A stretch of 64,000 nucleotides of DNA from Candidatus Omnitrophota bacterium. GTDB taxonomy: Bacteria > Omnitrophota > Gorgyraeia > Gygaellales > Profunditerraquicolaceae. The stretch spans positions 89,083 to 153,082 of the forward strand of contig JAKLGJ010000003.1 in NCBI GenBank assembly GCA_022710715.1. Direction: 5' to 3'. Positions 18,632-64,000 of this stretch are shown piece by piece. The stretch's first letter is position 1, and each line of letters starts with the position of its first letter. The translations under genes were made by a program, and so were the position numbers. The notes below the pieces were generated by a model that saw only the letters and a program-made list of their open reading frames with translations, did not search any database and had not been told where the DNA came from.

Positions 18632-21600
18632 CTACGGGTTTGCCTGGTAATCGCGGTAATTGGAATAAATTTCGGCGAGAATCCGGTGAGCCTGTTCTTC
18701 CAGAAGGATCGGACGCGCGTCGTGGAATAAACTCTGATAATCCGAGTCGCGGATAAGCTGATATGCCCCGAACACAAAATACACATTCTTCATCTGCTCG
18801 GGATGATCCAGGAACCACTGCATTTCATGAGAAGTCACCGATCCCTGCTCCACCTTGCTGTCCCCGAGAACAGCCTCGGGAACAAAGAACACGATCGGCC
18901 TGCCTTCAGAGGTGATCTCATTCAAATAACGGGTGGTATGATCTTCCCGATCTCCGTAGCGCCGGTCATATTCGGACATCCATTCTTTTAGATCTCCGGC
19001 TAAAGCCAGGGCTGAATAATCGTCCTGGGAATGGTACGTAGTGATCCCCAGCGCTTCCCCGTCCCGGTTGCGGAAGCTCGCCAGATTCTCGAGATAATCA
19101 TATATGGATATGACCCCTGCGGATTTTGCGCGCATAGCTGCAATCTGCGCCGCAGACAAACCGCTCAACTGCACTTCCCGCTCAAAATCCACCGGCTGCA
19201 GGATCGCATGATCGGCCTGCGCCAGCCGCTGCTGCACATAATCCGGCCGGTTTTCCACTTCGATCCGGAATAACGCGCGCCCGGCTTCGCTCTGGGCAAG
19301 CCTGATGAGTTGATCCTGCGACAAAAGCGACTTCAGCTCTTGAGAGCTCTTACCCGAAACCTGCAACTGCGCCCGTATAACATCCGGGGCCTTTCCGGTC
19401 AGCTCTATAATCGTATTGATCGCCAGATTCCTGTCTTCTCCGGTGGACGTGAACGCCTGCTCGACAGCCACTTTGGCTAACGGCGTTATGCCGGGTATCT
19501 GCGGCACGACGGTTGATTGTTTAACTTCCGCGCGCCCCTGATTTACCGTTTCTTCAAGCCTGGCGATCTGCGCGCTGATCTCCGCGTCGATCTTCACCGC
19601 TTCTCTCTGACCGGCTTCGGAGCGGATACTCGCGGCATTGCTCACCGCTCTTCGCTGCTGCAACTGCTTCAACCGCGCCAGTTCCCCTTCCGCCTGTTTC
19701 ACCTGCGCTTCAGTTGGCCCGCCGAGGCAGGCGGCAGCAATACTTCCGGCCCTTTCCACAGTCACCTCAACACCCTGATCTCTCAAAGCTTTCTGCATCT
19801 GACTGGCGAGATCTTTACCGCTCAAAGAAGCTCCGGACATTTGCTGGGCTATGGTATCGATCGCTTCATCGCTAAGACCGCGCAATGGATTGTCAGGATT
19901 GCTGCTGGCGCGCACGAACCGGATACCCCGGTCAAAAATATCTCTGCGGTTTTCTAATTGCGGACGATACGCTGAAGAATAATAATCAAGCACATTCTTA
20001 TGTGTACCGGCAAGAATAGCTTGTCTGATCGCATCCGCGTTCTGCGTAAGATGCGCATAGAAATCGTCCGTAACCACTCCGGACAAAGAAACATAATTTT
20101 GTGAAAGTGCGGGATTTTTCTCAATCATATCTTTCATAGCTTTACTACTTGCAATCAAATTACTGGTCATGCGACGGGAAATATCCATGGAGTCGACCGT
20201 GGAAAGATAATCCGACATCTCCCTTTCGACAAAGGTATCCAGCTGCGCCCTGTCTACATTTTCGCGGAGTTCCTCCGCTATCCCGGAATAAACAAAATCC
20301 GCCCAACCCCGGGCATCGTACTTCTGCGTTAATGGATTGGCACGCATATCTTCCGGGAAAGCATTGTCGAAATCGGATAAAGCGATATGTTTTCCGCTTT
20401 CCCTGCTGGTGACCGTTATTTCAGCGAGTTTTTCCAGATCAGCCAAAGGGCTCAAAACATTATACAGAGACCTCTTGGTCCCGATTTGCTTCAGGACATT
20501 ATTGATCTGATGAGGATCCTGCGCGTGCAGATACATCTTAAGCATATCGCTCACCGGAAAAGCCTTCGCTCGGATCAGCGTTTCCTGATCACCCATAATT
20601 GTTCCACCAATCAGCCAGTTTATCTTAATGAAAGAACCTCTTCCTGTTTTCATTTGTCCGGAATCTACAAATGCGGAAATTTCGTTAAGCGCATCTTGAG
20701 TATCCTTGTTCTCGAGCGATTGAGGACGCTCGCCTATCTGCCGCACAAAACGCAATACCGCGCGATAATCAAAATCTCCGCTCTTGGTCAAGCGTAAATT
20801 ATTGTTAAGAACGTCCTGCTTATAGCTTCCTCCGGTCTCATCGGTAATTTTCCAGCCTCCTTCATTATCACGATAAATACTCAACCGGTCCAGGGTAGCC
20901 GCTTTATTTCTTATCCCGCTATACTGGGACTCCACCACATATCCTTCCAGATTGACGATATCGGCATGCACTCCAAAGGTTTTCTCGATCTCCTGTTTAA
21001 AATCCCGTAACGCGCCCATCTCATCTTCCGTCAACACCACGTTGGCTGTTGCGGAAGGTCGCACGATAAGGTCGATATCGGAATAACCGTTGTCCTGTTT
21101 GCCGCCAAGCACCATTCTGCGCGCCGTCCCTCCGCCAAAAGCGATCTCCAATCCTTCGAATTCCGCCCTGGAGGCAATTTCTGCGATCATCGGGCTGATC
21201 TCAATTGAAACGCTGCTCTGATCCGGGAACCGCGCATCTGCTCTTACGTTACCGGCTTCAGGCTGTTGGAATGAAGGAACATTTGCGCCATTGAGCCCTG
21301 CGCGCCCGGCAATTGCCGTTGCCATATTCTGCAGGACCCGGTCCATCTGCTCCGCCGACACCTCGATATTCTGGCGCACCGCGCCGCTGGGCATCTTCTC
21401 ATTGATCCCGACATTGACCCCAAACACGGATACATCCGTACGATCTCCGCTATTGACCACCGAACCTTTGGAATAATACTTACTGAAAAAATCGCCATCC
21501 CTGGGCAAGCCCAGAGAATCTTTATAAAATTGTTCCAGCACTCCGATCATATCCTTAGTATAAACGTTGCCCTCGTATTCTTCTCCCAGAAAACTCTTGC

Positions 21601-24600
21601 CGTTCGCATTTGGTTTCTTGAGATTAATGAAGTTATCATGCAGAGTTTGCGCAAGTTCCTGCGCATCCCGCTGCCGGGTGACCGGATTGTTCAACCGCTC
21701 GCACGCGGCTTGCGCGTTTTTCTGCGCGAAGGCCGAAAGACGCTCGATTTCCGGCCCGTCGAAATGCCTGCCCATATTCTCGTTCATCCGGTCGAACGGG
21801 ATATCCTTATCGCTCAACCAGTGTATCGCGCCGTCCGATCCTTGAGTGCCGACCCTGACATCAAAAAGGTACATGCTGCCGTCCCGCTCAACCCGATACA
21901 CGCCGTCAAGGTCCGGCAGTTTGACACCGATAAATGTGACGAACACCTCGTTGATTTTCTCCGTGATTCCGGCTGCATCCTTTGCGCCCCGGATATACAT
22001 TGTTGTGCTGGAGGCGTAATCCATGTGATTATGGAGCAAAGATTCCAGCGCGCCTCTCACATCATTTTCCAGAAGCGAACGTTGCTGCGCGGCATCCCTA
22101 TCCCCGGCAGGTGCTATCCCTGCGCGCTGCGTGATATATTCGCCCAGATTTCGCAGGATCCTATCCATAGCCTTACGGTCCAGGTTCGTGGTCCGCACCA
22201 CGCCGGCTGCGGTCATCTCAACCTCGCCGACTGTAACCCCCAGAATGCCGGTCGTCTGGCGATCTCCAACATTTACCACCTGCCCCTCATGATTAAACTG
22301 ACTATTCAAAAGAAATCCATTTCCAGCTGGAGGTAATCCCAATTCTGTTTTATAGACCTCTTCTAAGCGCACAAGAACATCGGTAGGATGGACGTTTCCA
22401 CGGAAGAACTCTGGCTTACCGGCATATTTTTTCTGGAAATCACTTTCTATCTGCGGCAAAAGAGTATCTACGATTCTATCTCTGAATTGCGGACTCTGCA
22501 GATTGACCACCGCTTGCTGCGCTGCCGCCACAACCTGCGTTTTCATCCGCTCAAGAGACGTGCCGCTGAAAGTTTCCGCGATATTCTTATTCATCGTTGC
22601 AAAATCGATCTGGGCATCCGGCAGCCAATTGATCCTGCCATCAGCCTGTCGTTGCCCGGACAGAACGTCAAATACATAAACATCTCCTGTTGCATCAACA
22701 CGCATTAACTTTTCATTGAAGCCGTTGATGACCCCTGAAGGTAAACGAACTGCGTTAAGCAATACTGACTCTATTCTCCCGACCGGGTCAACCGACGGTT
22801 CACGCAGGATACCGACTAACCATTGCCCGGTTTTATTGTTACTATCCTGCAGAGTAACCAGTCTGTGCTCCAGGTCTCTTTCTATCGGCAATGACGTTTC
22901 TTCCGGAACCGGCGCCGTCGCTCTGTTCAACAGCCGGGAGGCTATAGACTGAACTCTATCCATTATCGAAGTGCCTTCTGCAACGGAGTTTTTCTCGACT
23001 CCAGCGGCGCGCGGAACAATCGGCCCGCCCAAGCACAAGGTAATGATGCCGCCTGCTTCAGACTGGGATAGCGGCGTGCCGCGCTGCTCCATATACTCCA
23101 TCAGCACCCGCTCATGCGTGCCGTAATCCGCGCGGGTCAGCCTCGAAGCGAGATCGCCGATCTCTCCGGAACTCAGATCCTTCAAGCGCGAATTCGCCGT
23201 CCCCTGTTCGAACTCCAACCCTCTCCTGAACACATCGTTACCCGAATTTTTCTTCTCGCCCGGAGACAGGCGCATCCCGGCGCCGGAAGCCCTGTTGATC
23301 ACCTCTTCTATGGCGAAATATATCCCGCTGCTGGTCCCGATCATCTCGTAATAATTCTGTGCCGCCCGCCCCAGAGCCGGATCGAGCGCGTTCGCTCTTT
23401 CCGCCAGAGCCGCGTACTCTTCGTATTTGTGCGACCATTCCCGATCCAGGGAAATTCCCGGAGACAGATTCTCGCCGATGAGCACGTCGCGGGTATCGCG
23501 CACATACGGCTTCAGCGCTGCCACAAAATCCTCGATCTGCTGCGCGCCCGGCCGTTCGCTTAAATACACGGTAACCGGATCATACCGGTCATACCAGTGT
23601 CCGGCTGTTGCGGGAGTCTTGTACCGGTTGACCAGTTCCGGGTATTTAAGCATAAATCCGTCCAGGGACTCGATCAGCCCTTCCTGCGCCAGGGCATTGA
23701 CGGAAAAACGCCAATCAGTTCCCGAGATATCCGCAGTATCGCGATCAGCCGGAAGCCGGTAGATGAACCCTTCGCCGGCATAGGTAGAAACAACTTCCTC
23801 TCCATTGACCAGACGCGGTTTAGACGCTCTATCGGCTATCGCAGGATCCTCGGAAGGCCGCGGGTTGTAAGAAGTGTGGCGCGCAGAGGAATACAGATCG
23901 CGGATAAAACGGCTATACATGCTCTGCGCATTATGCGGAACCCCGTATGCCTGGGACATATAATCGTAGCTCCATTCCGGGTCGCTCCTCGATCTGTCGA
24001 TATAATCGCAATATTCCTGAATCGCTCTTACCCGGGCTGTCTGGTGCTGCGGATAATCCGCTTCTGCGGATAAACTGTTGCTCCATGCCTCTTCGGCTGT
24101 CTGCCTCTGCGTCTTAATCACGGCCGGTTTATCTTTAGCGGGGGCGGTCTGCGCTTGCTGTTTGCTGCCGGCCGCCTGTTCGCCGCCCGCTGCCTCTGAC
24201 GCGCCGGCAGGCGCCATTTCGAGATCGATCAACCTGTTTGTTGCCGGGATAACCTCGGGCATGCGCCTTTCATTGTCGACCTGCTTTTGCGGCTGCGGCT
24301 CGGCGCTTGCAGAAGACGTCCGACTGCCGGAGACAGGCCGGTTCGACAATGCCTCGTCGTACGCTACCCGCGCCGAAGTATCTTTGCCGATGCGCTCGTA
24401 CGCCCAGTTGATGTCGATCATTCTTTCGGAACCTGCGGGATTCACGTCCGGGTGATACTGCTTGGTCTGCGCGCGGTAAGCTTTGTTTATTTCGGCCGGA
24501 GTTGCATCCCGGTTCACCTTGAGAATATCGTACGCCGACTCGCCGTTGCGATACACCTCTGCGTCAGTCGGCCGCACTGCCGAATCCGCCGGCCGGTCAA

Positions 24601-27600
24601 GACTGACGCTGCCGCCGTAGCGAGGAATGGCGAAGAACGGCAGCCAGCCCAGCAATTGGGCGTCCTGTTCGGTCATACCCAGCGTAGATTGCGTGACATC
24701 GTTGAAGAGCAAAGCGTTGGTCCCGGCGGTAAAACCGCTGAAGAACACCGCGTCATCCACGCTGCGCAGGAATGCGCCGGGCGTGGTCGGGAACATGGTC
24801 AGCCAGCTCTTCTGCACCGCGCCTTCTCCGGCGCTGGTCAACTCGCGTCCCAGAAGCGTTCTGGCCGTGCCGCGAAAATATCCATACGTCCCGGTATTTT
24901 GCGCCCACCGGGCGATACGGCCGGTACCCGCGGGATCCCATGTGGATGTAGTCAATCCCGCGACCTCGGTCAACGGACCCAGCCATAAGCCGGTATCTTT
25001 AGGAGAACTCGCCGCGCTCAACAACAGGTCCTGATACCAGGGCAGGCCTTCTTCGCCGTGCGGCCCGATCATCTCATCCGCAGACCAGTCGCCGGTGGTC
25101 AAACCCTCCCAGACATTGCCCAATCCCCAACCCACGGTATGGAACACCGGACCGACGAACACGAACGAACCCGCGCCGCGCAAAGAATCCGCTGCCAGCG
25201 TTTCCGGAGCCAGCGCATACGCGCCCAGCCGGCTGTCCACTCCCAGCAAATACCTGCCGGCCATCTGGCCGGTGCCGGATTCCGTACCCAATAAATAATT
25301 ACCCGCTCTGCCGGCAACGCCGGTCAATCCCAGTCCCTGCAATCCGGCGCTGAAGATAAATCCCTGGCCGTAGCCGTGACGCGCCGACTGCACCGTATCT
25401 TCCAGACTCGAAAGTCCCTGACCGCTGATCAAAGAATAGGCGTTATCCGAAGCTGCGGACACGCCTGCCCAGACCGCTCCGGAACGGGCAGCGCCCTGGA
25501 TCAATTTTCCTGCCTGCATACCCCGGCTGCCTGCGGCGAAAATCTCCTCACCTGCGCTCGACAACGCTATGCCGGTTTCCGCGGTGCCTCCCAGAATATC
25601 CGCTACCTGCATGCTCCGGGAGCCGATAGCCAGCGCCTCGTCGCCGATCAACGGGCTGACCAGCGTCAAAACCAGCGCCGCATCCGATGCCAGGTCCATC
25701 CAGGTATACGTCTGGGGTGTGAAAGTATAACTGGCCGTCGCCAGCGGATTTTTATTCACGCCGGCAGACACTACGGAAGACTGCCCGGAAGCATTCGCTG
25801 TTTCAGTATACGCATTCCATTCGGAAGAATCGATAAAAACCGAGGGGATCGCTCTCAAAGTAGTGATGCTCAACGGAGCGGGAATGCTGTTGATCAGCCC
25901 CGCGTTATACGCTTGATCGCCGGAATTAAGCAACGCCGGATCGACCGGGTTTTCATCGAGATACTGCTGCACATTATCCATTACGGATTGATCCACCACT
26001 GCGTTCATCTGGCCGCTGATCGTCGCTGATGCGCCCGCCCAGCCCGAAGCCAGACTTACCCAGAAATCGCCTTCAGCCTGGCCGAGCAGATACTGCGCGA
26101 CTACCGCTTTATGCTGCCGCTGCGCGCCGGTCTCTTCGGGCAGATCATTCCAATAGGTATACGCGCCCATCACGTCCGCCGCCTGGCTGTCTGACGGGCG
26201 ATAGCTGGCCACGAATTCTCCCTCGGCATTGAGCTCGTACCCCAGGCTCTGCGTCACCACGCTGATCTCATTGGGCAAAGTCACCAGAGAGCTCGGCTTG
26301 AGCATATCCGGGCTGACCCAGCCGGTGCGCTGTTTTCCGCTGCCGTCGGTATAGGTAACCATCACGTTGCCGTAGATGAAATTGAACATCCCCGGGTCAT
26401 CCTGGATCGCCTGCTGGCTCACCGGATACATTTTGCTGCCGTCGCTGCCGGCAACCGTCACGTTCACCGTGCCCTGGTACGTTCCGGGAATAGTGGTCGA
26501 GAATGAAACCCCGTCAATGCTGATCACGTCGGGATTCAACGCGTTATTGGCCGCCTGCGCCCCTTCCTGCATGCCATTGGCCCAGCCGCCGGTGATACCG
26601 CCGATAACCGCAGCCAATCCGATGTTCAGCTGCTCAACCAGCCCGGGAGCGCTCTGATGCCCGACCATAGAGGCCACGTTGCCCTGCGCGTCGAGAGTAA
26701 TAGTCACCTGCTTACCGGGATCCTGGCTATCGGTCAAAATGATAGTCGTATCGCCAATAACTTCTATCTCGGTCTGGCTGCTTAGAGCCATGGATTGTCC
26801 GTTGATGTTCAAGTACTGCACCGGGGCGTCCGCTTCAGTGGACCGGCTCACCGACACATGCTCGGACATAGCGGCGACCGAATAGTCCGTCCCATTACTG
26901 CTCACTACCGCTCCCTGCGCGTCTGTGGAATAAACGATAGCCCCGGAAGGATCCAGGACCACGGCATGGCGATTTTCATCATACTGGCCGGCAAGCTTAC
27001 CCTGTTCATAAACCTGTATCAGCGTCCTGCCGTTGGCGTCCGTGGTGACAAACTCGTAATTCTGCGCGTCCAGGTAATTCCGGTATTTTCCGGAAGCGCC
27101 GGTGGAATCCTGAACCGTCCACGGCGTGCCGTCATCCTTATACAGCGTGGTCACCGTGCGAGTACTGCCGTCGGGATTAGCCAGATACGTATACTGTTTG
27201 AACGGCACGAACTGTTGCTGGCCGTTGGCGTTGGTGATGGTATACCCCTCGGTAACGCTCTGGGTGTGCTCTGCGCCGACAGCATCGTAACTTTTCACGG
27301 TAATACGATCAGAGGTGCGAATAGTCGTGGTCCGGCTGGCCGGATCGAAAATCCCGGCAGTCAGCATATCGTTTATATTCCTCGCGCTTTGATTGATCTG
27401 ATTATTGATCTGCTGCATGGTCCCTGCGCCGGTTCCGGGAATTGCCGCCGCGGCCTGCAGTATGCCGATAGTGCGCACCTCGGCATTAACGTCATCGGCG
27501 CTGTAATATCCCGCTGGCGTGGCCATGCCCTGGGTCTGGCCGTTGACGGTCAATATTCCATCCGTAACCACATAGGCCGTTCCGTCCTGGCCTTGCAGGG

Positions 27601-30600
27601 TCAGGGTATTTCCGTCGGATGTCGAGCCGGCAACCATGATCTTACCCAGGCTGCCGTCGGCAGTGCGCTGATAATATGCGCCGGTGTTCTTATCCTTATA
27701 GAGCTGGCCGCGGTCGTCGACCGCGATCATGGTCGTGCCGGAACTTGAAGCCAGCGTATCGAGTACGGACTGGGGCAGGGACTGTCCGGTCTGACCTTCG
27801 TAGGTGCTCTGGAACAATAATCGGATCTCTCGATCGGAAAGCGGCTGGCCGATGCTTTCCTGAAAAGCTATGGTCTGCGCGACAGCCGCAGCCACGCCGT
27901 TATCCGCAGGCTGGTTGAGGATCGGCTTGAATGCCTCGATCTGCGTGCCGTCCGGATTCCTGCCGCCGGTGGCTGAAAGTATCGCCAGCAGATCCATAGT
28001 CGCTCCGGTATCTCCGGCATTTGATCCCGCGATCAATCCCGGCAAAACATAATTATCCCGGTAATAGGGATCATCCAGAGCGTTCTGCAAAGGCTTGAGG
28101 CTTTCGATGGTCGTGCCGTCGGGATTCTTGCCGCCGGTCACCGCGTAAACATAATTAAGCTGCTGCTGCGCGCCGACGTCGCCTCCGGCAGCTTTTTCCT
28201 GCAGATCAGGCACCAGGTAATAATCCCGGTAATACGGGTTGTTGGCGTCTGCGGCAAGCTGGCGTTCCTCCAGCGTCGGTTCGGACCGGGCAGGAGAACG
28301 GGCTTGCTGATCCACTGCTCCCCAGGACATAAAACCGAATGAGTTTCCGTTGTAAGACCATCTTCCCTTACCGAGCAGCCCGGCGCTATCTTTGCGGATG
28401 GTCAGGGCGGAGCAGGATGCGCCGATCTCCGGGGTCTGTCCGGGAACCAGGATCGCCTGCAGCGGAACGTAAAAAGTCTGATCATCGGCGCTGAAGGTCA
28501 CATTCGCATAGCGCACGAAATCCGGGATGATCACCTGCCCGTGTTCGTCCGTCGCCGGATCGGCGCTTAATCCCATCAAACCGGTTATTTCTTCCATACC
28601 GATATCTGCCGCAGCCAGATCGCTGGACTTGACCACTTTCCAGGTCCCTTCCTCTCCTTCGAATGGAGACGGCACGTAGACCGCGGAATAAACCAGGCCG
28701 GTGACATCATATTGCTTGCCGTTGATGGTAGCCGTACAGGTTTGTATCTGATCCGCGCCTTCATAATTATTGGCCTGCCAATTTGAGACGTTCGATTCGG
28801 ACAGAGCTACGGCGCACGCAAGAATATCCTGGCTGGGCGGCAGCTGATGATACGTATAGGTATACAGCCATAAAGCGGCGTGCTCCAGCTGCGGAGTCCA
28901 TACCAGAGGATTGTCTAGAGAAATGGTAACACCGGCCGGCGCCTGTTTGGATTCGTCTATTCTTACTTTAGCCACGACTCCGTTGTCGATACTCACCCAG
29001 GACTGGCTGTTGCGGTCGAGAAAATTCACGTTCTTCGGTACTGTTCCGTCCGCGCCGAGGCTGAAATCCGCGTTCGCGGTAAGCACCGTACCGTCGGCAA
29101 GGCCGAAGGCATCGCCTTTTTTATAGCCGGTCTGCAGGAATTGGCCGTCGGCTTGAGCAACCCATTGCCGGCCGTTGGAGGTGAATGCGGTGCCGGCAGG
29201 GATCACCCCGTTGGCTGCGTTAAAATCTTTAGCTGCGGTAAGGACGGTTTTGTCGTTCAGGGTGATGGTGTCGCCGGCTTTATACGACGTCTGCACGAAT
29301 CCCACTGCGTCGTGAATGGTATAGTCCTGCATGTCGCGCGGACCATTAAGACATGTCCAGGTCCTGCCCTGCTCGTCGGTTAACACCGTTCCCGAAGGCA
29401 TGGCGATACTGCCGGCGCGCGAAACCGCCATCGTACATGACTGGGTGGCGGTCAAAGTAACTCCTTCGGCTATTTCGAAGGTATCTCCCGGTTTGACGGT
29501 CAGATTGACCATTCCGCCTTCGGTGGACGCCCATTGATTGCCTGCGGCATCCACGTAATTGGAAGTTTTATTATTCCCGGGTTGCGAGCGTAGCACGGTG
29601 CCGTCGACAAGTGTAATAACCGCAGTCCTGGAATTCCCGGTTTCCGTGGAGGCTACGGCAACCGGCGCGCGCAAAGGCATATCGGCCCAGGCGATGTTGC
29701 CGGATCCCGGAACGATATTCCCCACGCCTGCCACGCGCAGGGTTCCTTCGATATTCAACCCGGTTGTTTTAGAAAGAAGCGCATCGGGAATGCGGGAATC
29801 GGCGGTCAACACAGGATAATCGCGGAATGCGGTTGCGGGAGAAACGGTATTTGCCGGATCGGCTGCGTCCGGGTTTACTGCCGTGGCTTTGCCGAGCATC
29901 CGGGTGACGGTTTCCGGCTGCATCTGCCTGATGATCGCGTTTGCCTGCTTCAACCCGAGATTCTCATGCTTGAGCAGGCTGGCGCCGATAGCGGTCTCCA
30001 CATGATCCATGGCCGGACCGGCCTTTTCCGCCTGCATCGCCTTAAGGATGGACGCCGCTCTGGGCAAACCTTGATTTGCCGCCGCGACGCTATTTAATAC
30101 TTTACCTGCGGTTTCCGGCTGAAGAGAGTTCATCATCTCTCCGGCCCGGGACAGATCAAGCGTGGGATCGGCGATAATCTTTGCGATCACATTCGCAGGC
30201 ATCCCCTGAAGGATGGACGCGAGATGCTGTTTATCGTTTAGCAGCTCCATCACCGACACCGCTTTGGGCGTTTCGACCGAAGCGATGAGCATTCCGGCTA
30301 TTTGAGTATCCATCTGCCCGAAAACTTCCGCCAGCGCCGGCGGTTCGAATGATTTGCTGTTGATAATGTCTACCGCGTTCTGCGTGCGCATATTCTCCAG
30401 AATAGTCGCGGCCTGTCCCGGATCGGTCATCTGCGCAAGGATCGCGGCGGAATTGCCGGGTGTGCCGGCGGCAAGGATATCCGCGGCTTTGTTCGCCCTG
30501 ATCTCTCCCATGATCCGCGCGGCCTGGTTGTTCTGGACCTGCCCCAGGATAGCAGTGGCGGTATCAGTGGTAATCGCATCGTTATTGAGGATCGACGCGG

Positions 30601-31546
30601 CTTTCTCTGCGGACAACTGGGTCAGGATCTGGCCGGCCAGTGCGGCGTTGCCGGATTGCGTCATGCTGCTGATCACCGCGGCGCCGATCGCCGGCGAAAC
30701 GGAACTGATCATCGTGACCTGCTGGGCCATGGACGCCTGTCTCATCGTGGCCAGGGAATTCAGCAGATTGACGTCGGCTTGATTTACTACGGAATCCGCA
30801 TTGAGATCCATGCTCGCGGAAACCACACCCGAATTGACAGAACTGGTAAATGTGGAGACATCCGCGCTGTTGAACACCGCGTTGCCGTCGAAATCGAGCT
30901 GGCTGGTGAGGGTGGAATTCGGCTGCCAATTGCCGGTGCTGACCAGATTATACGATGATGTGTTCATCACCGAAGAAAATGCTGTATTAGAAAGTGTGGC
31001 ACTGGAAACCGTGCCGGTCTGGACATTGGACAGAATATCGCGGTTAAACGATCCTTCGATGGTTGACCCCGCGCGCGTAGCAAAATCGAATCTATCGCTC
31101 ATGATGCCTGCGTCCGCTGCCGTGGGCATAATGGGAGTAAACCCGCCCAACGCTTCCGAAGGAATTACCGGTTTAAATGTATCGGTTATGCTTACGCCGG
31201 CGAATCCCGCATCGGATAATCTTACATTAGCGAAACTCGAGATCGATTCAGAAGGAATACTTGGCTTGATAATATTATCCGCCTTATAAGAGTCGAGTAT
31301 CGGGCTTGAGTAAGAAATCGGGCTGTCCGTGAATTTGGAGGCCAGGGAACTGGGGCTGACGAAACCCGAACCGGAGTAAGATGGAATAACGCCGCCGGTA
31401 TCCCCGCTTCCGGAGGTCTGATCGGAAGAACTGCTAAGCTGAATCCCCAGGGGGCCTTCAAGCGCGGAACTGGAATACTGGATAAAAGGATTAAAGGTGA
31501 GCAGCAACGATAAAAACAGGCTGCAGATTTGGCGTAATGCTCTCAT
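18632..31546 (-). CDS. Giant secreted multidomain protein A1, about 4300 aa (4335 aa from the track's start at 31639). It contains a dockerin-like motif, MgtE-N-like repeats, the family A core, a J domain, tandemly duplicated modules of about 200 aa and an NTase motif.
   Basis: I prefer the start at the ATG at 31546, which has an AGGAGA RBS and begins directly with the signal peptide MRALRQICSLFLSLLLTF. The track's 31639 start has no RBS and lies inside hairpins. Domains read from the translation: dockerin-like DxNxDxxVN repeats at about 30760-30905; MgtE_N-like A..IL..M repeats at about 30200-30760; the core shared with A2 at about 24560-25920 (EEGLPWYQDLLLSAASSPKDTGLWLG); a J domain with HPD at 24349-24560; tandem modules at about 21300-22710; and an NTase motif GGGTARRMVLGGKQDNGYSDIDLIV at 21041-21140. 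Confidence 0.8.
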   Translation of the reverse strand: MRALRQICSLFLSLLLTFNPFIQYSSSALEGPLGIQLSSSSDQTSGSGDTGGVIPSYSGSGFVSPSSLASKFTDSPISYSSPILDSYKADNIIKPSIPSESISSFANVRLSDAGFAGVSITDTFKPVIPSEALGGFTPIMPTAADAGIMSDRFDFATRAGSTIEGSFNRDILSNVQTGTVSSATLSNTAFSSVMNTSSYNLVSTGNWQPNSTLTSQLDFDGNAVFNSADVSTFTSSVNSGVVSASMDLNADSVVNQADVNLLNSLATMRQASMAQQVTMISSVSPAIGAAVISSMTQSGNAALAGQILTQLSAEKAASILNNDAITTDTATAILGQVQNNQAARIMGEIRANKAADILAAGTPGNSAAILAQMTDPGQAATILENMRTQNAVDIINSKSFEPPALAEVFGQMDTQIAGMLIASVETPKAVSVMELLNDKQHLASILQGMPANVIAKIIADPTLDLSRAGEMMNSLQPETAGKVLNSVAAANQGLPRAASILKAMQAEKAGPAMDHVETAIGASLLKHENLGLKQANAIIRQMQPETVTRMLGKATAVNPDAADPANTVSPATAFRDYPVLTADSRIPDALLSKTTGLNIEGTLRVAGVGNIVPGSGNIAWADMPLRAPVAVASTETGNSRTAVITLVDGTVLRSQPGNNKTSNYVDAAGNQWASTEGGMVNLTVKPGDTFEIAEGVTLTATQSCTMAVSRAGSIAMPSGTVLTDEQGRTWTCLNGPRDMQDYTIHDAVGFVQTSYKAGDTITLNDKTVLTAAKDFNAANGVIPAGTAFTSNGRQWVAQADGQFLQTGYKKGDAFGLADGTVLTANADFSLGADGTVPKNVNFLDRNSQSWVSIDNGVVAKVRIDESKQAPAGVTISLDNPLVWTPQLEHAALWLYTYTYHQLPPSQDILACAVALSESNVSNWQANNYEGADQIQTCTATINGKQYDVTGLVYSAVYVPSPFEGEEGTWKVVKSSDLAAADIGMEEITGLMGLSADPATDEHGQVIIPDFVRYANVTFSADDQTFYVPLQAILVPGQTPEIGASCSALTIRKDSAGLLGKGRWSYNGNSFGFMSWGAVDQQARSPARSEPTLEERQLAADANNPYYRDYYLVPDLQEKAAGGDVGAQQQLNYVYAVTGGKNPDGTTIESLKPLQNALDDPYYRDNYVLPGLIAGSNAGDTGATMDLLAILSATGGRNPDGTQIEAFKPILNQPADNGVAAAVAQTIAFQESIGQPLSDREIRLLFQSTYEGQTGQSLPQSVLDTLASSSGTTMIAVDDRGQLYKDKNTGAYYQRTADGSLGKIMVAGSTSDGNTLTLQGQDGTAYVVTDGILTVNGQTQGMATPAGYYSADDVNAEVRTIGILQAAAAIPGTGAGTMQQINNQINQSARNINDMLTAGIFDPASRTTTIRTSDRITVKSYDAVGAEHTQSVTEGYTITNANGQQQFVPFKQYTYLANPDGSTRTVTTLYKDDGTPWTVQDSTGASGKYRNYLDAQNYEFVTTDANGRTLIQVYEQGKLAGQYDENRHAVVLDPSGAIVYSTDAQGAVVSSNGTDYSVAAMSEHVSVSRSTEADAPVQYLNINGQSMALSSQTEIEVIGDTTIILTDSQDPGKQVTITLDAQGNVASMVGHQSAPGLVEQLNIGLAAVIGGITGGWANGMQEGAQAANNALNPDVISIDGVSFSTTIPGTYQGTVNVTVAGSDGSKMYPVSQQAIQDDPGMFNFIYGNVMVTYTDGSGKQRTGWVSPDMLKPSSLVTLPNEISVVTQSLGYELNAEGEFVASYRPSDSQAADVMGAYTYWNDLPEETGAQRQHKAVVAQYLLGQAEGDFWVSLASGWAGASATISGQMNAVVDQSVMDNVQQYLDENPVDPALLNSGDQAYNAGLINSIPAPLSITTLRAIPSVFIDSSEWNAYTETANASGQSSVVSAGVNKNPLATASYTFTPQTYTWMDLASDAALVLTLVSPLIGDEALAIGSRSMQVADILGGTAETGIALSSAGEEIFAAGSRGMQAGKLIQGAARSGAVWAGVSAASDNAYSLISGQGLSSLEDTVQSARHGYGQGFIFSAGLQGLGLTGVAGRAGNYLLGTESGTGQMAGRYLLGVDSRLGAYALAPETLAADSLRGAGSFVFVGPVFHTVGWGLGNVWEGLTTGDWSADEMIGPHGEEGLPWYQDLLLSAASSPKDTGLWLGPLTEVAGLTTSTWDPAGTGRIARWAQNTGTYGYFRGTARTLLGRELTSAGEGAVQKSWLTMFPTTPGAFLRSVDDAVFFSGFTAGTNALLFNDVTQSTLGMTEQDAQLLGWLPFFAIPRYGGSVSLDRPADSAVRPTDAEVYRNGESAYDILKVNRDATPAEINKAYRAQTKQYHPDVNPAGSERMIDINWAYERIGKDTSARVAYDEALSNRPVSGSRTSSASAEPQPQKQVDNERRMPEVIPATNRLIDLEMAPAGASEAAGGEQAAGSKQQAQTAPAKDKPAVIKTQRQTAEEAWSNSLSAEADYPQHQTARVRAIQEYCDYIDRSRSDPEWSYDYMSQAYGVPHNAQSMYSRFIRDLYSSARHTSYNPRPSEDPAIADRASKPRLVNGEEVVSTYAGEGFIYRLPADRDTADISGTDWRFSVNALAQEGLIESLDGFMLKYPELVNRYKTPATAGHWYDRYDPVTVYLSERPGAQQIEDFVAALKPYVRDTRDVLIGENLSPGISLDREWSHKYEEYAALAERANALDPALGRAAQNYYEMIGTSSGIYFAIEEVINRASGAGMRLSPGEKKNSGNDVFRRGLEFEQGTANSRLKDLSSGEIGDLASRLTRADYGTHERVLMEYMEQRGTPLSQSEAGGIITLCLGGPIVPRAAGVEKNSVAEGTSIMDRVQSIASRLLNRATAPVPEETSLPIERDLEHRLVTLQDSNNKTGQWLVGILREPSVDPVGRIESVLLNAVRLPSGVINGFNEKLMRVDATGDVYVFDVLSGQRQADGRINWLPDAQIDFATMNKNIAETFSGTSLERMKTQVVAAAQQAVVNLQSPQFRDRIVDTLLPQIESDFQKKYAGKPEFFRGNVHPTDVLVRLEEVYKTELGLPPAGNGFLLNSQFNHEGQVVNVGDRQTTGILGVTVGEVEMTAAGVVRTTNLDRKAMDRILRNLGEYITQRAGIAPAGDRDAAQQRSLLENDVRGALESLLHNHMDYASSTTMYIRGAKDAAGITEKINEVFVTFIGVKLPDLDGVYRVERDGSMYLFDVRVGTQGSDGAIHWLSDKDIPFDRMNENMGRHFDGPEIERLSAFAQKNAQAACERLNNPVTRQRDAQELAQTLHDNFINLKKPNANGKSFLGEEYEGNVYTKDMIGVLEQFYKDSLGLPRDGDFFSKYYSKGSVVNSGDRTDVSVFGVNVGINEKMPSGAVRQNIEVSAEQMDRVLQNMATAIAGRAGLNGANVPSFQQPEAGNVRADARFPDQSSVSIEISPMIAEIASRAEFEGLEIAFGGGTARRMVLGGKQDNGYSDIDLIVRPSATANVVLTEDEMGALRDFKQEIEKTFGVHADIVNLEGYVVESQYSGIRNKAATLDRLSIYRDNEGGWKITDETGGSYKQDVLNNNLRLTKSGDFDYRAVLRFVRQIGERPQSLENKDTQDALNEISAFVDSGQMKTGRGSFIKINWLIGGTIMGDQETLIRAKAFPVSDMLKMYLHAQDPHQINNVLKQIGTKRSLYNVLSPLADLEKLAEITVTSRESGKHIALSDFDNAFPEDMRANPLTQKYDARGWADFVYSGIAEELRENVDRAQLDTFVEREMSDYLSTVDSMDISRRMTSNLIASSKAMKDMIEKNPALSQNYVSLSGVVTDDFYAHLTQNADAIRQAILAGTHKNVLDYYSSAYRPQLENRRDIFDRGIRFVRASSNPDNPLRGLSDEAIDTIAQQMSGASLSGKDLASQMQKALRDQGVEVTVERAGSIAAACLGGPTEAQVKQAEGELARLKQLQQRRAVSNAASIRSEAGQREAVKIDAEISAQIARLEETVNQGRAEVKQSTVVPQIPGITPLAKVAVEQAFTSTGEDRNLAINTIIELTGKAPDVIRAQLQVSGKSSQELKSLLSQDQLIRLAQSEAGRALFRIEVENRPDYVQQRLAQADHAILQPVDFEREVQLSGLSAAQIAAMRAKSAGVISIYDYLENLASFRNRDGEALGITTYHSQDDYSALALAGDLKEWMSEYDRRYGDREDHTTRYLNEITSEGRPIVFFVPEAVLGDSKVEQGSVTSHEMQWFLDHPEQMKNVYFVFGAYQLIRDSDYQSLFHDARPILLEEQAHRILAEIYSNYRDYQANP
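24349..24560 (-). other. DnaJ-type J domain embedded in giant protein A1
   Basis: YDILKVNRDATPAEINKAYRAQTKQYHPDVNP...INWAYERIGKD. This has the canonical helix II-HPD-helix III pattern. I located the DNA by reverse-translating YHPDVNP at 24426-24446. Confidence 0.6.
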
Positions 31547-31564: not shown

Positions 31565-31597
31565 AAAATAAAAAACCCAAGGCAGCGATACCTTGGG
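31565..31597 (-). terminator. Strong intrinsic terminator 8 nt upstream of the RBS of giant gene A1, a putative transcription attenuator
   Basis: Minus-strand CCCAAGG-TATCGCTG-CCTTGGG followed by TTTTTTATTTT. A second GC hairpin CCCGCTGCCAAATGCAGCGGG lies at 31631-31651, further upstream. Confidence 0.6.
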
Positions 31598-31796
31598 TGA
31601 AAAAAACGTTCCCTTTGGTAACGCAGCCTCCCGCTGCATTTGGCAGCGGGACTGTCGCTTTGCGCCCCCCGATTACTCGAGGTTTGCCTTTATCAGTAGA
31701 ACTCTTCTTCTACTTACCTATTATTACTATTATATTTCCAACATATTAAGTATAGCACATTTTTGCTAAATTTCAACCTTACCAATTGCACAATTA

Positions 31797-31923
31797 GCAG
31801 ACGTTTTCCCCATCCGCATGTGGCACATTGACTTACAAAGATATTGTTCCGCACCGCCAAATTGACGCATAAATAATATTTTTGTAACCAATTGCCGCAC
31901 ATGCGGATGGGGAAAGCGTCTGC
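31797..31923. repeat. 127-nt intergenic inverted-repeat element, copy A. The arms are about 29 nt (GCAGACG(C)TTTCCCCATCCGCATGTGGCA) around an AT-rich core.
   Basis: It starts 2 nt after the stop codon of giant gene A2. The other copies, also exactly 127 nt, are at 42787-42913 and 62687-62813. The cores of A and B are identical (ATTGACGCATAAATAATATTTTTG). Confidence 0.75.
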
Positions 31924-31925
31924 GG

Positions 31926-34900
31926 TTAAAGGTTCAGGTCTCCGTAGCCGGGCATGGAATCTAGAGACTGATAAAGCTCTCGGCATGCGCTAAGCAATTT
32001 TTCCCGTTCCGCCGCATTCAATCCCGATTTCTCAGCCTTGGCCGTCAACTCGCTGACGGTTCTAAAAGCAAGCTCGGTTTGCGGCGCGCAAGCGCCCTCC
32101 GCCTGCAACTCTTTGTCTAAAGCCGCGTACCGCTGGCGATAAACCCCAAGGCTCGCAGCCAAAGGATGCGCCTGCCATTGCTCCGGAGTTAAAACGATCC
32201 TGTTCCGCTCACTGTTTTCCTTATCCAGCTTAAAGCTGGTTTGCTTGAAGCTGGCGGACATTTCGTTGCCATAGTGCCCGATCACTTCCGGTCCGTTGCC
32301 ATAGAAAAACCAACTATTCGCGAATTTCGTCAACGCCCGCACATACCTTAACATTTCATTCCGTTGTTCCGGAGAATACATCCCGGGATTCTCGGCGAGG
32401 AACTTCATCACCGGCCCGACAACGGTCTTTCGTATATCCCGATAAGCAGCGAACGGGTCATTTCCGTTCCCCAGCTGCAAAGATCTGGGAGTTCCATGCC
32501 CGCCGATCACCAGCAGATCGATAGATCCCGGTTCATTGGAATTTTTGATCCACTCCACGGCCTGGGTCAACGAATTGACTTCTTTGGTCCTTACTTCATA
32601 GCCGGAACTTTTCAGCTGTTCTTCAAGATCCCTTTCTTTGAATGCTCCATTATGATCGGAGGACGGCGTAAGGATCACCGCGATCTTTGTTTTTGCATCT
32701 TTTTCGATTGTTTCCCTCGCCGCTGTTCCACCCGCGACAAAACATTCCCCATCCCTTTTCACCGGCGCGCCCTCCATACGAACTTCCATTACCCCGTCAT
32801 AATGCACCGCATAATTCACCTTGTCGATCGCGCCTTTGTCACTGAAGTCTATCCGCATACTGCTGGAGGAATGCTGGGCGCCGAATGTCCGGCGGTCACC
32901 CAGGGCCTTGGACACTTCTGTCGCCAGATTGACATTATCGCCAGGCGTTACGGCTCCCGTAGAACAGCTGTTCAATATAATATCTGCATTCTCTTTCAAA
33001 TACGGACCGATCTCCTGCAATTGCGCCACGTTCTCCAGGCTCAATTTCGCGTCTTTCATCGACTCGCGCATCTGCTCGACGATATCCGGGATATGCCGGG
33101 AGATGTTCTCCAACTCCGCCTTACTCTGCGCAGACATCCCCAGCTCTTCCGGATAATGCTCTTCGAAAGTCCTTTCCCTGGCGGCTTCGGAGCCCGGCTT
33201 CTTTTCCGGCGCCGGCAGCAGATCATCAATAGCTGGCGCTTTAGCGTGAGTTTCCCGGTCAAAGGCAATCGCGTCCTCGGGACAATACCTGATCCACTCC
33301 CTCATCTGTTCCGCTACGGATTCTGACGCAAAACTGTATTCCTGCCGTAATTCCTTCGCTTTCTCCTGCCAGGCATTGATCTCATACAACTCATGTTCCA
33401 GCACCCGTTGATTAGCGGCATGCTCGGCATCCACATAAATAACCGCCTCACCGTACACCCTGCCCAGGCCGATATGCGCCAGCTGACCGGTTTTTTCGAG
33501 CAATCCTTCGATCGGAATAACCCGCGCAGCCGCACCGCAGCCTTCGGCTAAAGGATAGTTCTTAATATTGGTTTTGTCCGCAAGCAGATCGGCTGGCAGA
33601 TTGGCCTTAACATGCTCGTTTACCGCGGTATGCGTAGCTTTTTCCGCGCCGCCGGCAGCGAGATTGATATCCACTTCGTTTTGCGCGTCATCAGCCGCTT
33701 GCAGTTCCCTCCGACCGCTGTTTTCGGGGATCAGGTCTTTCTGCAGACGGATGTAATCGCGAATATCCAGCAGCTGATTATACGTTTCTTTGGCTTGCTC
33801 CAGCGCCTTCTGCCCCTTCTCTTTATTCTCGGCTTTACGCACAACTTGCAAAGGAGAAGCAGCCACCCGGTCCAGCTCTTTAATCGAGCTCCCGATCAAA
33901 TCAATCTGACGGTCGAGCTCTTCGAGCATGGATTCGCATTCCTGGCGGTTGATCGAACGCAGGTCAATGCGGGATTTCAGTATCCCTTCCGTAAACGGCC
34001 TGTGGATCTTTCCGATTTCCCACAGAATCTGGTTAGCCCGGTACGCGCTGGAGGTTCTGTCTTTCACCCAGTTTTCCGCCTTTGCCCCCAGCCATTCCTG
34101 CGCGTTGAGGAAACGATCCAGGGCGCTGTCGCCGATATGCTCCCACGGCCGGTCATGCATCAGATTCGGACTTGCAGACAACCCCAGGCCGTACGACATT
34201 GCCCCGGACGAATACAGATTAAAATGCTTAACCAGCCCTTCCGCCTTCCTGAACGCCTCTTCCACCGGAGTGAACACGAACTCATTCTCCGAGATCATCG
34301 GCAGCCAACCCCAGTTCTTATCCTGCACGCGCACGCCCATCGGGCCGAAATCATAATCCTGGCTGACCTTGATCTTCGCGGGATCTTTCTGCTGAACAAT
34401 CAGAGGAAGCAATTTCGGTATCGCTTCAGGCGAAGACACCTGCACATCGATCTCCCTGCCTTCGAGAAGATTATCCGGGATCTCGCCGAACAAGTTCTTC
34501 ACATCGAAAATATCCTGCAGATGCTCCAGGGAAATCTCATACTCTTCGGTAACACTGGAATAATCTTTAGCGGGATCGTACGGCCTGGATCCCGGGTCAA
34601 CCGTCTTGATCAGGAAATAGGGATCGCGTCCGGCAACAAACTGGATATCCACCACGCTGCCTTCCATGCCGCGCTTGCCACGAGAGAACGCATACGCGTA
34701 CAGCTTCATCGCCAGCTGGGCTTTCTGATTATTATTCAATCCGTCGAAGTTGTTCACCACGAAATCGAATATCTTCTTCTCGTTCTCGTTGCGCCAGGTC
34801 CTCCAGTCGTCATTGACTTTCTCTTCATACTGCACCCTGACCGACGCGCTCGGCAACTGCCCGCCGGACTCTTTGCCGATCTCGGTCAAACTGGTGGAAT

Positions 34901-42913: not shown

Positions 42914-42915
42914 GA

Positions 42916-53251: not shown

Positions 53252-53324
53252 CAGAAAATTTGTTCCTGTGTTTGAAAACGCTTTCAGCTTTTTATATAAA
53301 TAAGTATACCCTATAAAAAGCTAA

Positions 53325-53377
53325 TTTTCAAGTGGTGGGCGCTCCCTTATCCCCTTGTCGCACAAGGCTTAAGGGAA
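53325..53377 (-). terminator. GC-rich hairpin just downstream of the B2 stop, a putative terminator or 3' stabiliser
   Basis: GGTGGGCG...CCTTGTCGCACAAGG...CGCCCACC, an imperfect dyad. On the minus strand it is followed by a moderately T-rich run (TTGAAAATTAGCTTTTTATAGG). Confidence 0.4.
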
Positions 53378-62686: not shown

Positions 62687-62813
62687 GCAGACGCTTTCCT
62701 CATCCCAATGCGGCACAATGCATTACAATAATATTCTATATACGCCAATTCTTAAGCCGGTAATAATATCATTGCAACCTATTGCCGCATTTAAAGATGG
62801 GGAAAGCGTCTGC
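62687..62813. repeat. 127-nt intergenic inverted-repeat element, copy C (more diverged core)
   Basis: The outer arms GCAGACGCTTTCC / GGGGAAAGCGTCTGC are conserved. It overlaps the stop codon of the deaminase gene by 1 nt and lies upstream of B2. Confidence 0.65.
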
Positions 62814-63295
62814 TAATAGAGTTGTTTGTGGGGGAGGCGGTGCCAGTCGGAGAAAAGCTGACGGCATTCTTTGAGGAGGGAACTGCGCTTGAGGCAGATC
62901 GAGCTTTTGCCCAGCGACTTCAACCTGGCGCTGGAGACTTTGAATTCGTTGAAGCCAATCTTACTGGCATCGGCGATATTCGTGCCGTACACGATCTTGC
63001 CGATCCTGGCCCAATGAATCGCGGCAAAGCACATCGGGCAGGGTTCGGTGGTGGTGTACATCACGCAATTTGATAAATCGAACGAACCGGCCAGCTTTGA
63101 AGCTTTGCGGATAGCGTTGATCTCGGCATGGCAGGTTGCGTCGTTCTTGAGCACGGTGTTGCGCGCCACAGCCAGCACCCGGCCGCGTTTCACAATGCAG
63201 GCGCCGAACGGCCCACCTTCCATGGTCTTCAGATTCTTGCGCGCTTCTTTGATCGCCAGAAGCATGAAGTGCTCATCGTTTTTCTTCATGCTCAT
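62813..63295 (-). CDS. CMP/dCMP-type zinc-dependent nucleoside deaminase (TadA/guanine-deaminase-like), 160 aa
   Basis: CHAEINAI (His-Ala-Glu) and PCPMCFAAI (Cys-x-x-Cys) zinc-binding motifs. The size is typical of the TadA/GuaD family. Confidence 0.7.
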   Translation of the reverse strand: MSMKKNDEHFMLLAIKEARKNLKTMEGGPFGACIVKRGRVLAVARNTVLKNDATCHAEINAIRKASKLAGSFDLSNCVMYTTTEPCPMCFAAIHWARIGKIVYGTNIADASKIGFNEFKVSSARLKSLGKSSICLKRSSLLKECRQLFSDWHRLPHKQLY

Positions 63296-63337: not shown

Positions 63338-64000
63338 TTATAAAATAGCCAGAATTTCCTTCATTGCCGGCGCAGTGACCACAGCAGCGTCCTCTTCCAT
63401 CTTCAATACTTCCATGATCCAGCTTGAAGCGCGTTTAAGACTCTCACAGGCGTCTTTGTTTCCGCCGCAAGCCTTAATATAGGAACGCATTTCTGCGTAC
63501 GGCATCTCGCCGGACTGCGCTCTGGCCTGGATCGCCTGCCACTGCTGATCCAGTTCCCGCACGTTTACCTGCGCCACAGCCCCGGCAACCGCTTCAGCCG
63601 CTACTCCAGAGCCTGCAACCGCAGCCGGCTGCCCGGCCACCACAGGGATCATCCGGAAATCCACGCCGCCGAGATCTTCCGGCGCCGCAGGTTGAACATC
63701 ATCCACCGCTGCGTCCTTCAGCCCGCCATCCAACGCATCGCCTTGAGCCAGCGGTTTCTCGATCTGCCCCAGAGCCTGCAACACGGCTACTGCGTCGCGC
63801 AATTCCATACTCGCGATTTCTCTGCTGTAATCCTTATACTCTTCCAGCGTAAGCTCTTCCTTAGGAGACAAATCCCTCCCCAGCACAACTACCGGGTCGC
63901 CGTTGTCATTCTTCAAGGTCGAGCTGATATACATTCTCTCCGGAAGCAATTCCTGTAGAGGCGTTTTAACGGTTTCTAAGAATTCGCGGCTGCCCGTAAT
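63338..64000 (-). CDS. C-terminal 203 aa of a third family B giant protein (B3), which continues beyond the window
   Basis: It ends with the family B C-terminal domain (GGVDFRMIPV...ELDQQWQAIQARAQSGEMPYAEMRSYIKACGG...IMEVLKMEEDAAV...KEILAIL). It also carries an MPERMYISS...YSREIASMELRDAVAVLQALGQIE module that is internal in B1, followed by a DGG. Confidence 0.7.
   Translation of the reverse strand: MTGSREFLETVKTPLQELLPERMYISSTLKNDNGDPVVVLGRDLSPKEELTLEEYKDYSREIASMELRDAVAVLQALGQIEKPLAQGDALDGGLKDAAVDDVQPAAPEDLGGVDFRMIPVVAGQPAAVAGSGVAAEAVAGAVAQVNVRELDQQWQAIQARAQSGEMPYAEMRSYIKACGGNKDACESLKRASSWIMEVLKMEEDAAVVTAPAMKEILAIL

Follow-up and report, generated by a model that had tools for sequence, protein, structure and literature searches.

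The window analysed here is a stretch of 64,000 nucleotides (nt) from a Candidatus Omnitrophota bacterium that carries four complete giant genes and the 3' end of a fifth, all on the minus strand. The genes fall into two paralogous families, A (A1 and A2) and B (B1x, B2x and B3), and this report concerns the modular construction of their proteins and the short recurrent marks, Asp-Gly-Gly (DGG) or Ser-Ser-Pro (SSP), that punctuate the B-family proteins. The five genes are as follows (aa, amino acids; ORF, open reading frame).

18632..31546, minus strand: A1, 4304 aa from Met32 (longest ORF 18632-31639, 4335 aa)
31926..42644, minus strand: A2, 3572 aa
42916..53172, minus strand: B1x, 3418 aa
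53397..62468, minus strand: B2x, 3023 aa from Met14 (longest ORF 53397-62507, 3036 aa), identical to protein P0001
63338..64000, minus strand: B3, the 3' end of the fifth giant gene, corresponding to protein P0020

An earlier note on this DNA had described four ORFs of 4335, 3572, 3418 and 3036 aa and the tail of a fifth, head to tail on the minus strand. The four ORFs were found exactly where it had placed them, and the fifth gene, whose frame is open from 63338 to the window end, is complete in the source contig (L002:450-9131), where its called length is 2893 aa and an alternative start would give 2870 aa. All five giants do lie on the same strand, but the array is not strictly contiguous, as a 160-aa deaminase gene splits B2x from B3. 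The probable start of A1 (31546) was placed at an internal Met on the strength of a Shine-Dalgarno sequence (AGGAG) and of a riboswitch that overlaps the longer ORF, and that of B2x (62468), also an internal Met, was placed by its Shine-Dalgarno sequence. The long start of A2 has AAGGAGG/GAGG upstream, and the long form includes the signal peptide and the catalytic cysteine of a peptidase domain; the database start is a GTG at residue 143 without a Shine-Dalgarno sequence. Each of the five N-termini, read by eye, opens with charged residues that are followed by a hydrophobic core and a cleavage pattern of AxA type, and all five giants are predicted from this pattern to carry Sec-type signal peptides, as the note had held.

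The source is a metagenome-assembled genome (MAG), and the database gene call for A2 differs in its start from the longest ORF; both points would favour the view that the ORFs are artefacts, whether chimeric assemblies, collapsed repeats or pseudogenes that are open by chance. Against this, 12 contigs encode the very same B2x protein, and the gene order B3 (with a GH9 domain), 160-aa deaminase, B2x, B1x is the same in the three displayed assemblies (ENA, JGI and NCBI). Because protein and neighbourhood are identical in independent assemblies, chimeric or collapsed ORFs are very unlikely. There are no internal stops over the 9-13 kilobases (kb) of each of the five genes, the N- and C-terminal domains are strongly conserved over hundreds of homologues, and Shine-Dalgarno and promoter-like sites lie ahead of each gene. 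An artefact is therefore largely refuted already and would be most improbable, and the genes can be taken as intact.

Comparison of the giants with each other bore out the proposal of real paralogous genes in two families. A1 and A2 have a common core of ~750-830 aa at 36% identity (A1 residues 1569-2314 match A2), which is larger than the ~450 aa reported earlier. B1x and B2x share ~390 aa at the N-terminus (62% identity), two central blocks (56% and 77%) and ~114 aa at the C-terminus (39%), and B3 shares with its paralogues the N-domain, the C-domain and one internal module. This agrees with the N-terminal, central and C-terminal blocks that had been proposed for the three B proteins. The fraction of each protein shared with a paralogue is only 17-33%, consistent with the claim that 60-80% of each is unrelated mosaic sequence. 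Block conservation at the DNA level holds for B1x and B2x (74-81% identity) and is reduced in A1 and A2 to a single 92-nt block at 75%. The C-terminal nucleotidyltransferase-like module of A1 has a counterpart, at 29% identity, in a B-family protein of a different genome (L018), so that modules move between the A and B families. Duplication followed by module exchange, also put forward in the note, is supported by this common module and by the finding that shared blocks stop at defined junctions.

The B family is large, undescribed and restricted to Omnitrophota. A homologue search with B2x returned 441 proteins, from Omnitrophota wherever the source is named; one of them, annotated in a Candidatus Omnitrophota MAG, matches B2x at 100% identity. 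In the homologues the similarity is confined to the N-domain, which makes up the first 10-16% of the query and is 46-63% identical; the remaining cargo is unrelated. A scan of species representatives (one genome per species) found 471 B-family loci, nearly all in MAGs named as Omnitrophota; most of the remainder are labelled 'uncultured Planctomycetales'. Among 2.9 million viral contigs scanned, the B N-domain was found only as two short fragments. Some genomes have up to 5-6 copies, and tandem sets were seen at 7 of 82 loci. Tandem same-strand arrays of 3-4 B genes were found elsewhere (L018:4485-19409, L013, and JBAZLM010000004.1 with L042, L066 and L067), so that tandem amplification recurs in the B family in other Omnitrophota genomes; some members of such arrays are short, at ~1000 aa. 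The giants had been presented as founding members of new families, a view that does not hold given more than 440 public B-family proteins, the 471 loci and the long mosaic Omnitrophota proteins already described (West-Roberts et al. 2023, bioRxiv 10.1101/2023.11.21.568195; Nielsen & Lui 2026, bioRxiv 10.64898/2026.06.07.730766).

B-family proteins are framed by constant ends. The N-domain comprises ~340 aa after the signal peptide, with the motifs FWVNLRPD, RPWIVP and LRQVYYSL, and ends in YFSGG, of which SGG is invariant. The N-domains of B1x, B2x and B3 are 53-66% identical to those of homologues, and the predicted model of the B2x N-domain has a mean confidence (pLDDT) of 79.8. The C-terminus of all three proteins has the motif GG(I/V)D(F/L/M)RxLP (in its narrower form GG(I/V)DFRxLP), a Pro/Ala-rich spacer and a four-helix bundle; the predicted model of the B2x C-domain (pLDDT 83) contains a bundle that resembles generic helical repeats only. 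In keeping with the earlier statement that the conserved blocks belong to no recognised family, our searches of Pfam models, NCBIfam models and solved folds gave no match to them. At the end of the signal peptide, the sequence (I/V)FEQSGFAQ(V/I) is near-invariant family-wide (e.g. window 62380-62468); this exceeds what a signal peptidase needs and hints at a dedicated sorting or processing signal.

Between the constant ends, hydropathy points to two-helix hydrophobic hairpins and to unrelated modules of normally cytoplasmic type. Pfam scans covered A1, A2, B1x and B2x. B1x has the N-domain (to 52138), 13 modules bounded by DGG, among them transmembrane-hairpin modules and a Response_reg domain, and the C-domain (42919-43260), and B2x has the N-domain (61461-62468), transmembrane hairpins, HEAT repeats and the C-domain (53400-53738). 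For B3, the precomputed Pfam entry lists a GH9 domain only. Homologues are 1.7-5 thousand aa long, and their Pfam cargo includes enolase, TPI, PGK, GAPDH, phosphomannomutase, ROK kinases, methyltransferases, histidine-kinase ATPases, GNATs, metallophosphoesterases, AAA ATPases, GH9 and HEAT repeats. One protein from another genome (P0096, 3600 aa) has GAPDH, PGK, an aldolase-like GatZ domain, TPI and enolase behind a single signal peptide, that is, consecutive steps of lower glycolysis in a layout resembling a fused gap-pgk-tpi-eno operon; the N- and C-domains of its GAPDH are 530 residues apart. In another (P0065, 2561 aa, other genome), Enolase_C precedes Enolase_N.

The marks delimit these modules. 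DGG occurs 13 times in B1x, nine times in B2x and eight times in B3, against ~1 expected by composition, and is absent from A1 and A2. Its codons within the window are at the following positions.

B1x, minus strand: 51970-78, 51445-53, 50833-41, 50242-50, 49819-27, 49399-07, 48880-88, 48262-70, 47626-34, 47173-81, 45832-40, 45586-94 and 44227-35
B2x, minus strand: 61170-78, 59403-11, 58950-58, 57960-68, 57213-21, 56466-74, 55872-80, 54702-10 and 53835-43
B3, minus strand: 63722-63730, the one of its eight that falls inside the window

In 51 homologues DGG is found 337 times where 39 copies would be expected. It has the consensus (Q)(K/R)-D-G-G-(T/S) and lies within small, polar linker sequence, and the median length of a DGG-to-DGG module is 200 aa. 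Homologues that are poor in DGG are enriched instead in the SSP mark, S-(A/S)-S-S-P-(V/I/L), coded AGY-TCG-CCG and present 151 times against 22 expected. SSP occupies the same slots as DGG: directly after the N-domain, 10-40 residues ahead of the C-domain, and at internal sites. The C-domain tracks the type of mark, with MPY and a short end in DGG-type proteins and IPS with a 28-aa extension in SSP-type proteins, and mark type is uniform per genome (the five paralogues of JPNA_metabat.7 have 25 DGG and no SSP). Where family members have blocks in common, 33-36% of the block ends are no more than 10 aa from a mark, compared with 5% for random positions, and recognisable Pfam domains fall between marks, none spanning them. 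A search for a third punctuation motif in proteins with neither mark found none.

The marks are conserved at the level of the peptide and of its codons. At the peptide level, DGG prefers K/R at -1 and T/S at +1, and SSP prefers A/S at -1 and V/I/L at +1, and the nucleotides flanking the marks have no information content. At the codon level, we examined 145 DGG sites in 21 genes from many genomes, and found that DGG is encoded nearly always as GAC-GGC-GGN, with the core word GACGGCGG. The codon preferences of both marks, compared with context-matched controls, are given below.

Asp of DGG, codon GAC: 90% at marks; 61% in the control (D-G without a following G); 35% elsewhere in the gene; p = 1.5e-8
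First Gly of DGG, codon GGC: 83% at marks; 61% in the control (other G-G contexts); 37% elsewhere; p = 2.7e-5
Middle Ser of SSP, codon TCG: 51% at marks; 2% in the control (other S-P contexts); p = 1.4e-7

The second Gly of DGG is fixed as an amino acid and unconstrained at its third base. General codon-pair bias in D-G and G-G contexts accounts for part, not all, of the synonymous bias. Given the flanking amino-acid preferences with degenerate codons on the one hand and the codon bias on the other, the marks are constrained doubly, as peptides and as strings of 8-9 nt, and the nucleotide constraint points to a role at the level of DNA or RNA. The window has 20 copies of GACGGCGG on the coding strand where two would be expected, and 18 of the 20 copies are in-frame DGG codons of B1x and B2x; it was not found on the opposite strand or in the 24 kb of A1 and A2. 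Two simple roles for the word were rejected. A genome-wide Chi-like word is at odds with its absence from the plus strand and from A1/A2 and with the in-frame position of 18 of its 20 copies, and a Shine-Dalgarno-like signal for internal starts is at odds with the lack of a consistent downstream start codon and with the disfavouring of GGA-GGN, which would form GGAGG.

A candidate protease for Gly-Gly sites is encoded in the A family. A2 consists of a serine/threonine-rich linker, a C39 peptidase, the A core, and weak matches to TraG-D_C and DUF4347.

41874..42233, minus strand: C39 (double-glycine) cysteine peptidase domain of A2, PF03412, residues ~138-257

The domain matches PF03412 with E = 1e-12 (48.5 bits against a cut-off of 22). 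When it is aligned with the ComA peptidase structures 5xe8, 3k8u and 8hf6, the catalytic Cys (QYNC) and His (GHYV) align and the Asp is kept, so that A2 has a C39 peptidase domain with its catalytic residues in place. It also matches the peptidase region of the NCBIfam bacteriocin ABC model, at scores far under the cut-offs for full-length transporters. The signal peptide ahead of the domain predicts a location outside the cytoplasm. Directly after it (window 41790-41860, minus strand, A2 residues ~262-284) is a stretch resembling a double-glycine leader, EISGAGLDILGAIGG/AVNG, which could be a site of self-cleavage that frees the protease domain. No N-terminal peptidase of C39 or S8 type was found by Pfam in A1, B1x or B2x. 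A1 has two MgtE_N stretches, DnaJ and a weak FliG_M match below the Pfam threshold, and A1 and A2 have 0-1 hydrophobic segments each. They are a separate, rare family of signal-peptide-bearing giants: an HMMER search with the A core against 1.84 billion representatives gave seven matches, including A1, A2 and one spurious eukaryotic NACHT protein. A search with A2 residues 1-1300, probably swamped by S/T-rich words, returned no homologues, and neither did the C39 region. A relative of the A family, P0124, also bears C39 domains. PADLOC defence models gave no match to A1 or A2.

We tentatively favour, short of an even chance, a composite reading in which the giants would be modular envelope or effector-carrier proteins and the marks sites of processing, of shuffling or of both. 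On this reading the cell would export the giants and anchor those of the B family in its inner membrane. The marks would be recognised as sites where the chain is processed into modules, with DGG perhaps cut by a double-glycine protease such as the C39 domain of A2, and the same marks would double as in-frame junctions for module exchange. The B family would then be a polyprotein-like carrier with variable cargo between constant ends, and the cargo might be used at the cell envelope or in the host or prey interactions typical of the phylum. A proposal that Omnitrophota giants are cleaved by C39 or S8 peptidases, at cleavage points that were described as unknown and as blocking analysis, has been published (West-Roberts et al. 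2023, bioRxiv 10.1101/2023.11.21.568195), and fits the processing idea here.

Several observations weigh against the predicted cleavage. Synonymous constraint above context-matched controls is not something that a protease site alone would predict. No extended amphipathic leader of the C39 type, or hydrophobic periodicity, was seen upstream of DGG. The only links from A2 to the B proteins are their adjacency at this locus and the Gly-Gly specificity of C39 peptidases, and no C39, A-core or A-type gene was found beside the B genes at any of 82 other loci. Punctuation is also dispensable, since 40 of 199 family members, roughly one in five, are without a recurrent mark. The parity of transmembrane helices between DGG sites, from a predictor that uses hydropathy only, gave a single-compartment protease no backing either way. 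Finally, the predicted export of cytoplasmic-type enzymes would be paradoxical, and the topology comes from crude hydropathy.

A possible alternative is that the marks are in-frame recombination junctions or linker scars (GACGGCGG and AGYTCGCCG) that are never cleaved, and that microhomology-mediated or site-specific recombination exchanges modules there between proteins that act as intact giant scaffolds anchored in the membrane. The synonymous constraint that survives the context controls, the in-frame copies of the core word, the termination of shared blocks at marks, the lineage- and genome-specific type of mark, the module common to the A and B families and the existence of mark-less members are all as such junctions would have them. 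A recombination junction alone does not predict the flank preferences, however, which exist only at the amino-acid level and argue that a peptide is recognised; the same is true of the second Gly, with its free third base and fixed amino acid. RecA-type recombination would need longer strings than 8-9 nt, and none of the neighbouring genes encodes a recombinase. A general effect of D-G and G-G context accounts for part of the codon bias, and marks are kept at the borders of the N- and C-domains, where shuffling is unneeded. The nucleotide constraint, the mark-less members, the missing leader helix and the missing linkage of A and B genes elsewhere are why the composite reading is held no more firmly than stated and why uncleaved junctions are about as likely.

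A stronger form of the composite reading, which we consider unlikely, is that DGG and SSP would form a hitherto unrecognised 'punctuation code' of long Omnitrophota proteins that is read twice, as protease sites (DGG by a secreted C39 peptidase like that of A2) and as sites of nucleic-acid exchange. If so, a share of the proteome of these bacteria would be made as polyproteins in the manner of viruses, in effect as fused operons (cf. P0096), and the marks would provide the map of cleavage points that is said to be missing in the field.

The Omnitrophota are characterised by mosaic proteins of long or giant size. Two published catalogues cover larger ones than those described here, with genes of more than 90,000 bp (West-Roberts et al. 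2023, 10.1101/2023.11.21.568195) and proteins of at least 10,000 aa (Nielsen & Lui 2026, 10.64898/2026.06.07.730766). The closest published relatives in architecture are the Archaeovorins and 'multi-enzyme metabolic cluster' proteins of the same phylum, which likewise combine a signal peptide, with or without transmembrane helices, with a mosaic of unrelated cytoplasmic-type enzymes, are mostly unique in sequence, and in some cases have an N-terminal C39 domain by the signal peptide, as in A2. The proteins here differ in their size of 2,900-4,300 aa. Archaeovorins typically have SecA_DEAD and SecA preprotein-binding domains and numerous transmembrane helices. SecA_DEAD was not found in the four scanned giants, and A1 and A2, with their few hydrophobic segments, lack the many helices; an N-terminal C39 or S8 domain near the signal peptide is present in A2 only. 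Published giants are mostly flanked by type II secretion system or pilus genes, whereas the B-family genes examined are not. Neither of the two studies mentions a family of under 5 thousand aa framed by N- and C-domains, the DGG and SSP marks with their synonymous constraint, riboswitch control of an A family or a palindrome at stop codons.

Two further systems are instructive. MARTX toxins have constant N- and C-terminal regions around variable, recombining effector modules, and an internal cysteine protease cuts between the modules. They are a functional analogue in their constant ends framing variable modules, but here the protease candidate is on a separate protein (A2), the B proteins have membrane hairpins, and cleavage is our inference; Pfam gave no matches to RTX repeats or C80 in the four scanned giants, or to type I secretion genes among the flanking genes. 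The second comparison is with the C39 exporters ComA and PCAT1, which process double-glycine leaders. The A2 domain aligns with the peptidase domain of ComA, catalytic residues included, and the candidate sites in the B proteins also end in Gly-Gly. In contrast to these exporters, A2 has no ABC_tran or ABC membrane domains, and the DGG sites are not preceded by an amphipathic leader helix in which hydrophobic positions are conserved.

Two questions stand in the published work, namely whether the giants act as a single chain or are cut, and how their mosaic architecture arises. The locus and its family of ~470 loci offer a tractable class of 3-4 thousand aa in which to address them, with constant ends, a computable border mark, an adjacent candidate protease and a riboswitch. 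The marks yield testable predictions and allow giants to be split rationally into modules for structure prediction. A protein linker would not ordinarily show constraint at synonymous sites, and a new mechanism of in-frame module exchange may lie behind it.

The riboswitch ties one giant family to second-messenger control. It lies in the 5' leader of A1, which runs in the order aptamer, hairpin, Shine-Dalgarno sequence and start codon.

31613..31697, minus strand: aptamer of the GEMM-I clan (CL00126), model c-di-GMP-I-GGC (RF03167), A1 5' leader
31575..31598, minus strand: terminator-like hairpin and T-run, a 10-bp stem ACCCAAGG...CCTTGGGT followed by TTTTTATTTT

The hairpin is probably the expression platform of the riboswitch. 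As in other genes controlled by c-di-GMP-I (GEMM-I) riboswitches, a full-length CL00126 aptamer in the leader (coverage of the Rfam model 80/80, E = 1e-11) is followed by a terminator-like hairpin. The differences are that the best model is the GGC variant, barely above gathering (60.2 bits against 59), and that the gene encodes a giant of 4,304 aa. To our knowledge, the ligand of this variant is not established. Only one other A-family gene has its 5' end available, that of P0124 from another metagenome, and just ahead of its start codon lies a c-di-GMP-I aptamer (RF01051; L088:804-899) that scores 60 bits where gathering is 35. No riboswitch was found upstream of A2, B1x or B2x or at six B-family loci. 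The element is thus linked, on these sequence matches, to the A family, whose expression would be tied to second-messenger signalling.

Beside A1 are the genes of a two-partner secretion (TPS) system and two further genes.

8629-13416: TpsA, 1595 aa, with TPS domain PF05860
13443-15257: TpsB, 604 aa
17129-17683: borderline PEP-CTERM protein (20.6 bits against a cut-off of 20.7)
17777-18445: CBM96 protein

Small ORFs at 6687-8410 and 15453-16968 gave no Pfam match. The TPS system is therefore where the earlier note had seen it, and the note had read the whole region as an envelope island. On an adhesin version of that view, the giants would be five secreted surface adhesins founding new giant-adhesin families. 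The signal-peptide-like N-termini of all five, the neighbouring TpsA, TpsB, CBM96 and borderline PEP-CTERM proteins and the GH9 domain of B3 would fit such an island, as would the riboswitch, since c-di-GMP riboswitches often control surface structures. The contents of the giants are not those of adhesins: across 17,000 aa no repeats of adhesin type were found, DnaJ, MgtE_N, Response_reg, HEAT and C39 are the domains present, and homologues bear glycolytic enzymes, kinases and methyltransferases. PF05860 was not found in the scanned giants and is present only in the neighbouring 1595-aa protein, so the giants are not TpsB cargo. At the loci examined in other genomes, B-family genes are solitary among housekeeping genes and outside envelope islands, and the family is already populous. 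We therefore regard the adhesin island as poorly supported and improbable, and the description of the region as a cell-envelope or surface island was not supported.

A palindromic element of 132 nt recurs at stop codons in the window.

31797..31928, minus strand: copy 1, overlapping the A2 stop codon
42787..42918, minus strand: copy 2, 89% identical to copy 1, overlapping the B1x stop codon
62687..62818, minus strand: copy 3, degenerate and 68% identical, overlapping the deaminase stop codon, upstream of B2x

Its arms are 26 nt long with 0-1 mismatches, and the RNA of copy 1 is predicted to fold at -68.2 kcal/mol (z = -9.1). We read the palindrome as a putative 3'-end hairpin that would terminate transcription or stabilise the mRNA and that was duplicated together with the cassettes; alternatively, it may be an element resembling miniature inverted-repeat transposable elements. 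Two scans of the metagenome collection did not find it. Matches to microRNA families were discounted, being far under gathering scores and reflecting only the long hairpin.

Within its upstream spacer each giant gene has a promoter-like TTGAAA-16/17-TATACT site.

53303..53331, minus strand: TTGAAA-17-TATACT, upstream of B1x
31749-31776, minus strand: site of the same form, A1
42721-42748, minus strand: site of the same form, A2
62621-62648, minus strand: site of the same form, B2x

Because these sites are consensus matches only, we infer separate transcription units with caution. Riboswitches that are unrelated to the giants flank two of the B loci in other genomes, a fluoride riboswitch directly downstream of a tRNA (L009:4339-4402) and a thiamine pyrophosphate (TPP) riboswitch (L011:440-553). 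The remaining gene of the array is the following.

62813-63295, minus strand: 160-aa deaminase of cytidine/nucleoside type, wedged between B3 and B2x

It has the HAE...PCPMC motif of cytidine/deoxycytidylate deaminases and matches to dCMP_cyt_deam_1 and MafB19-deam, and has the same placement in all three assemblies shown.

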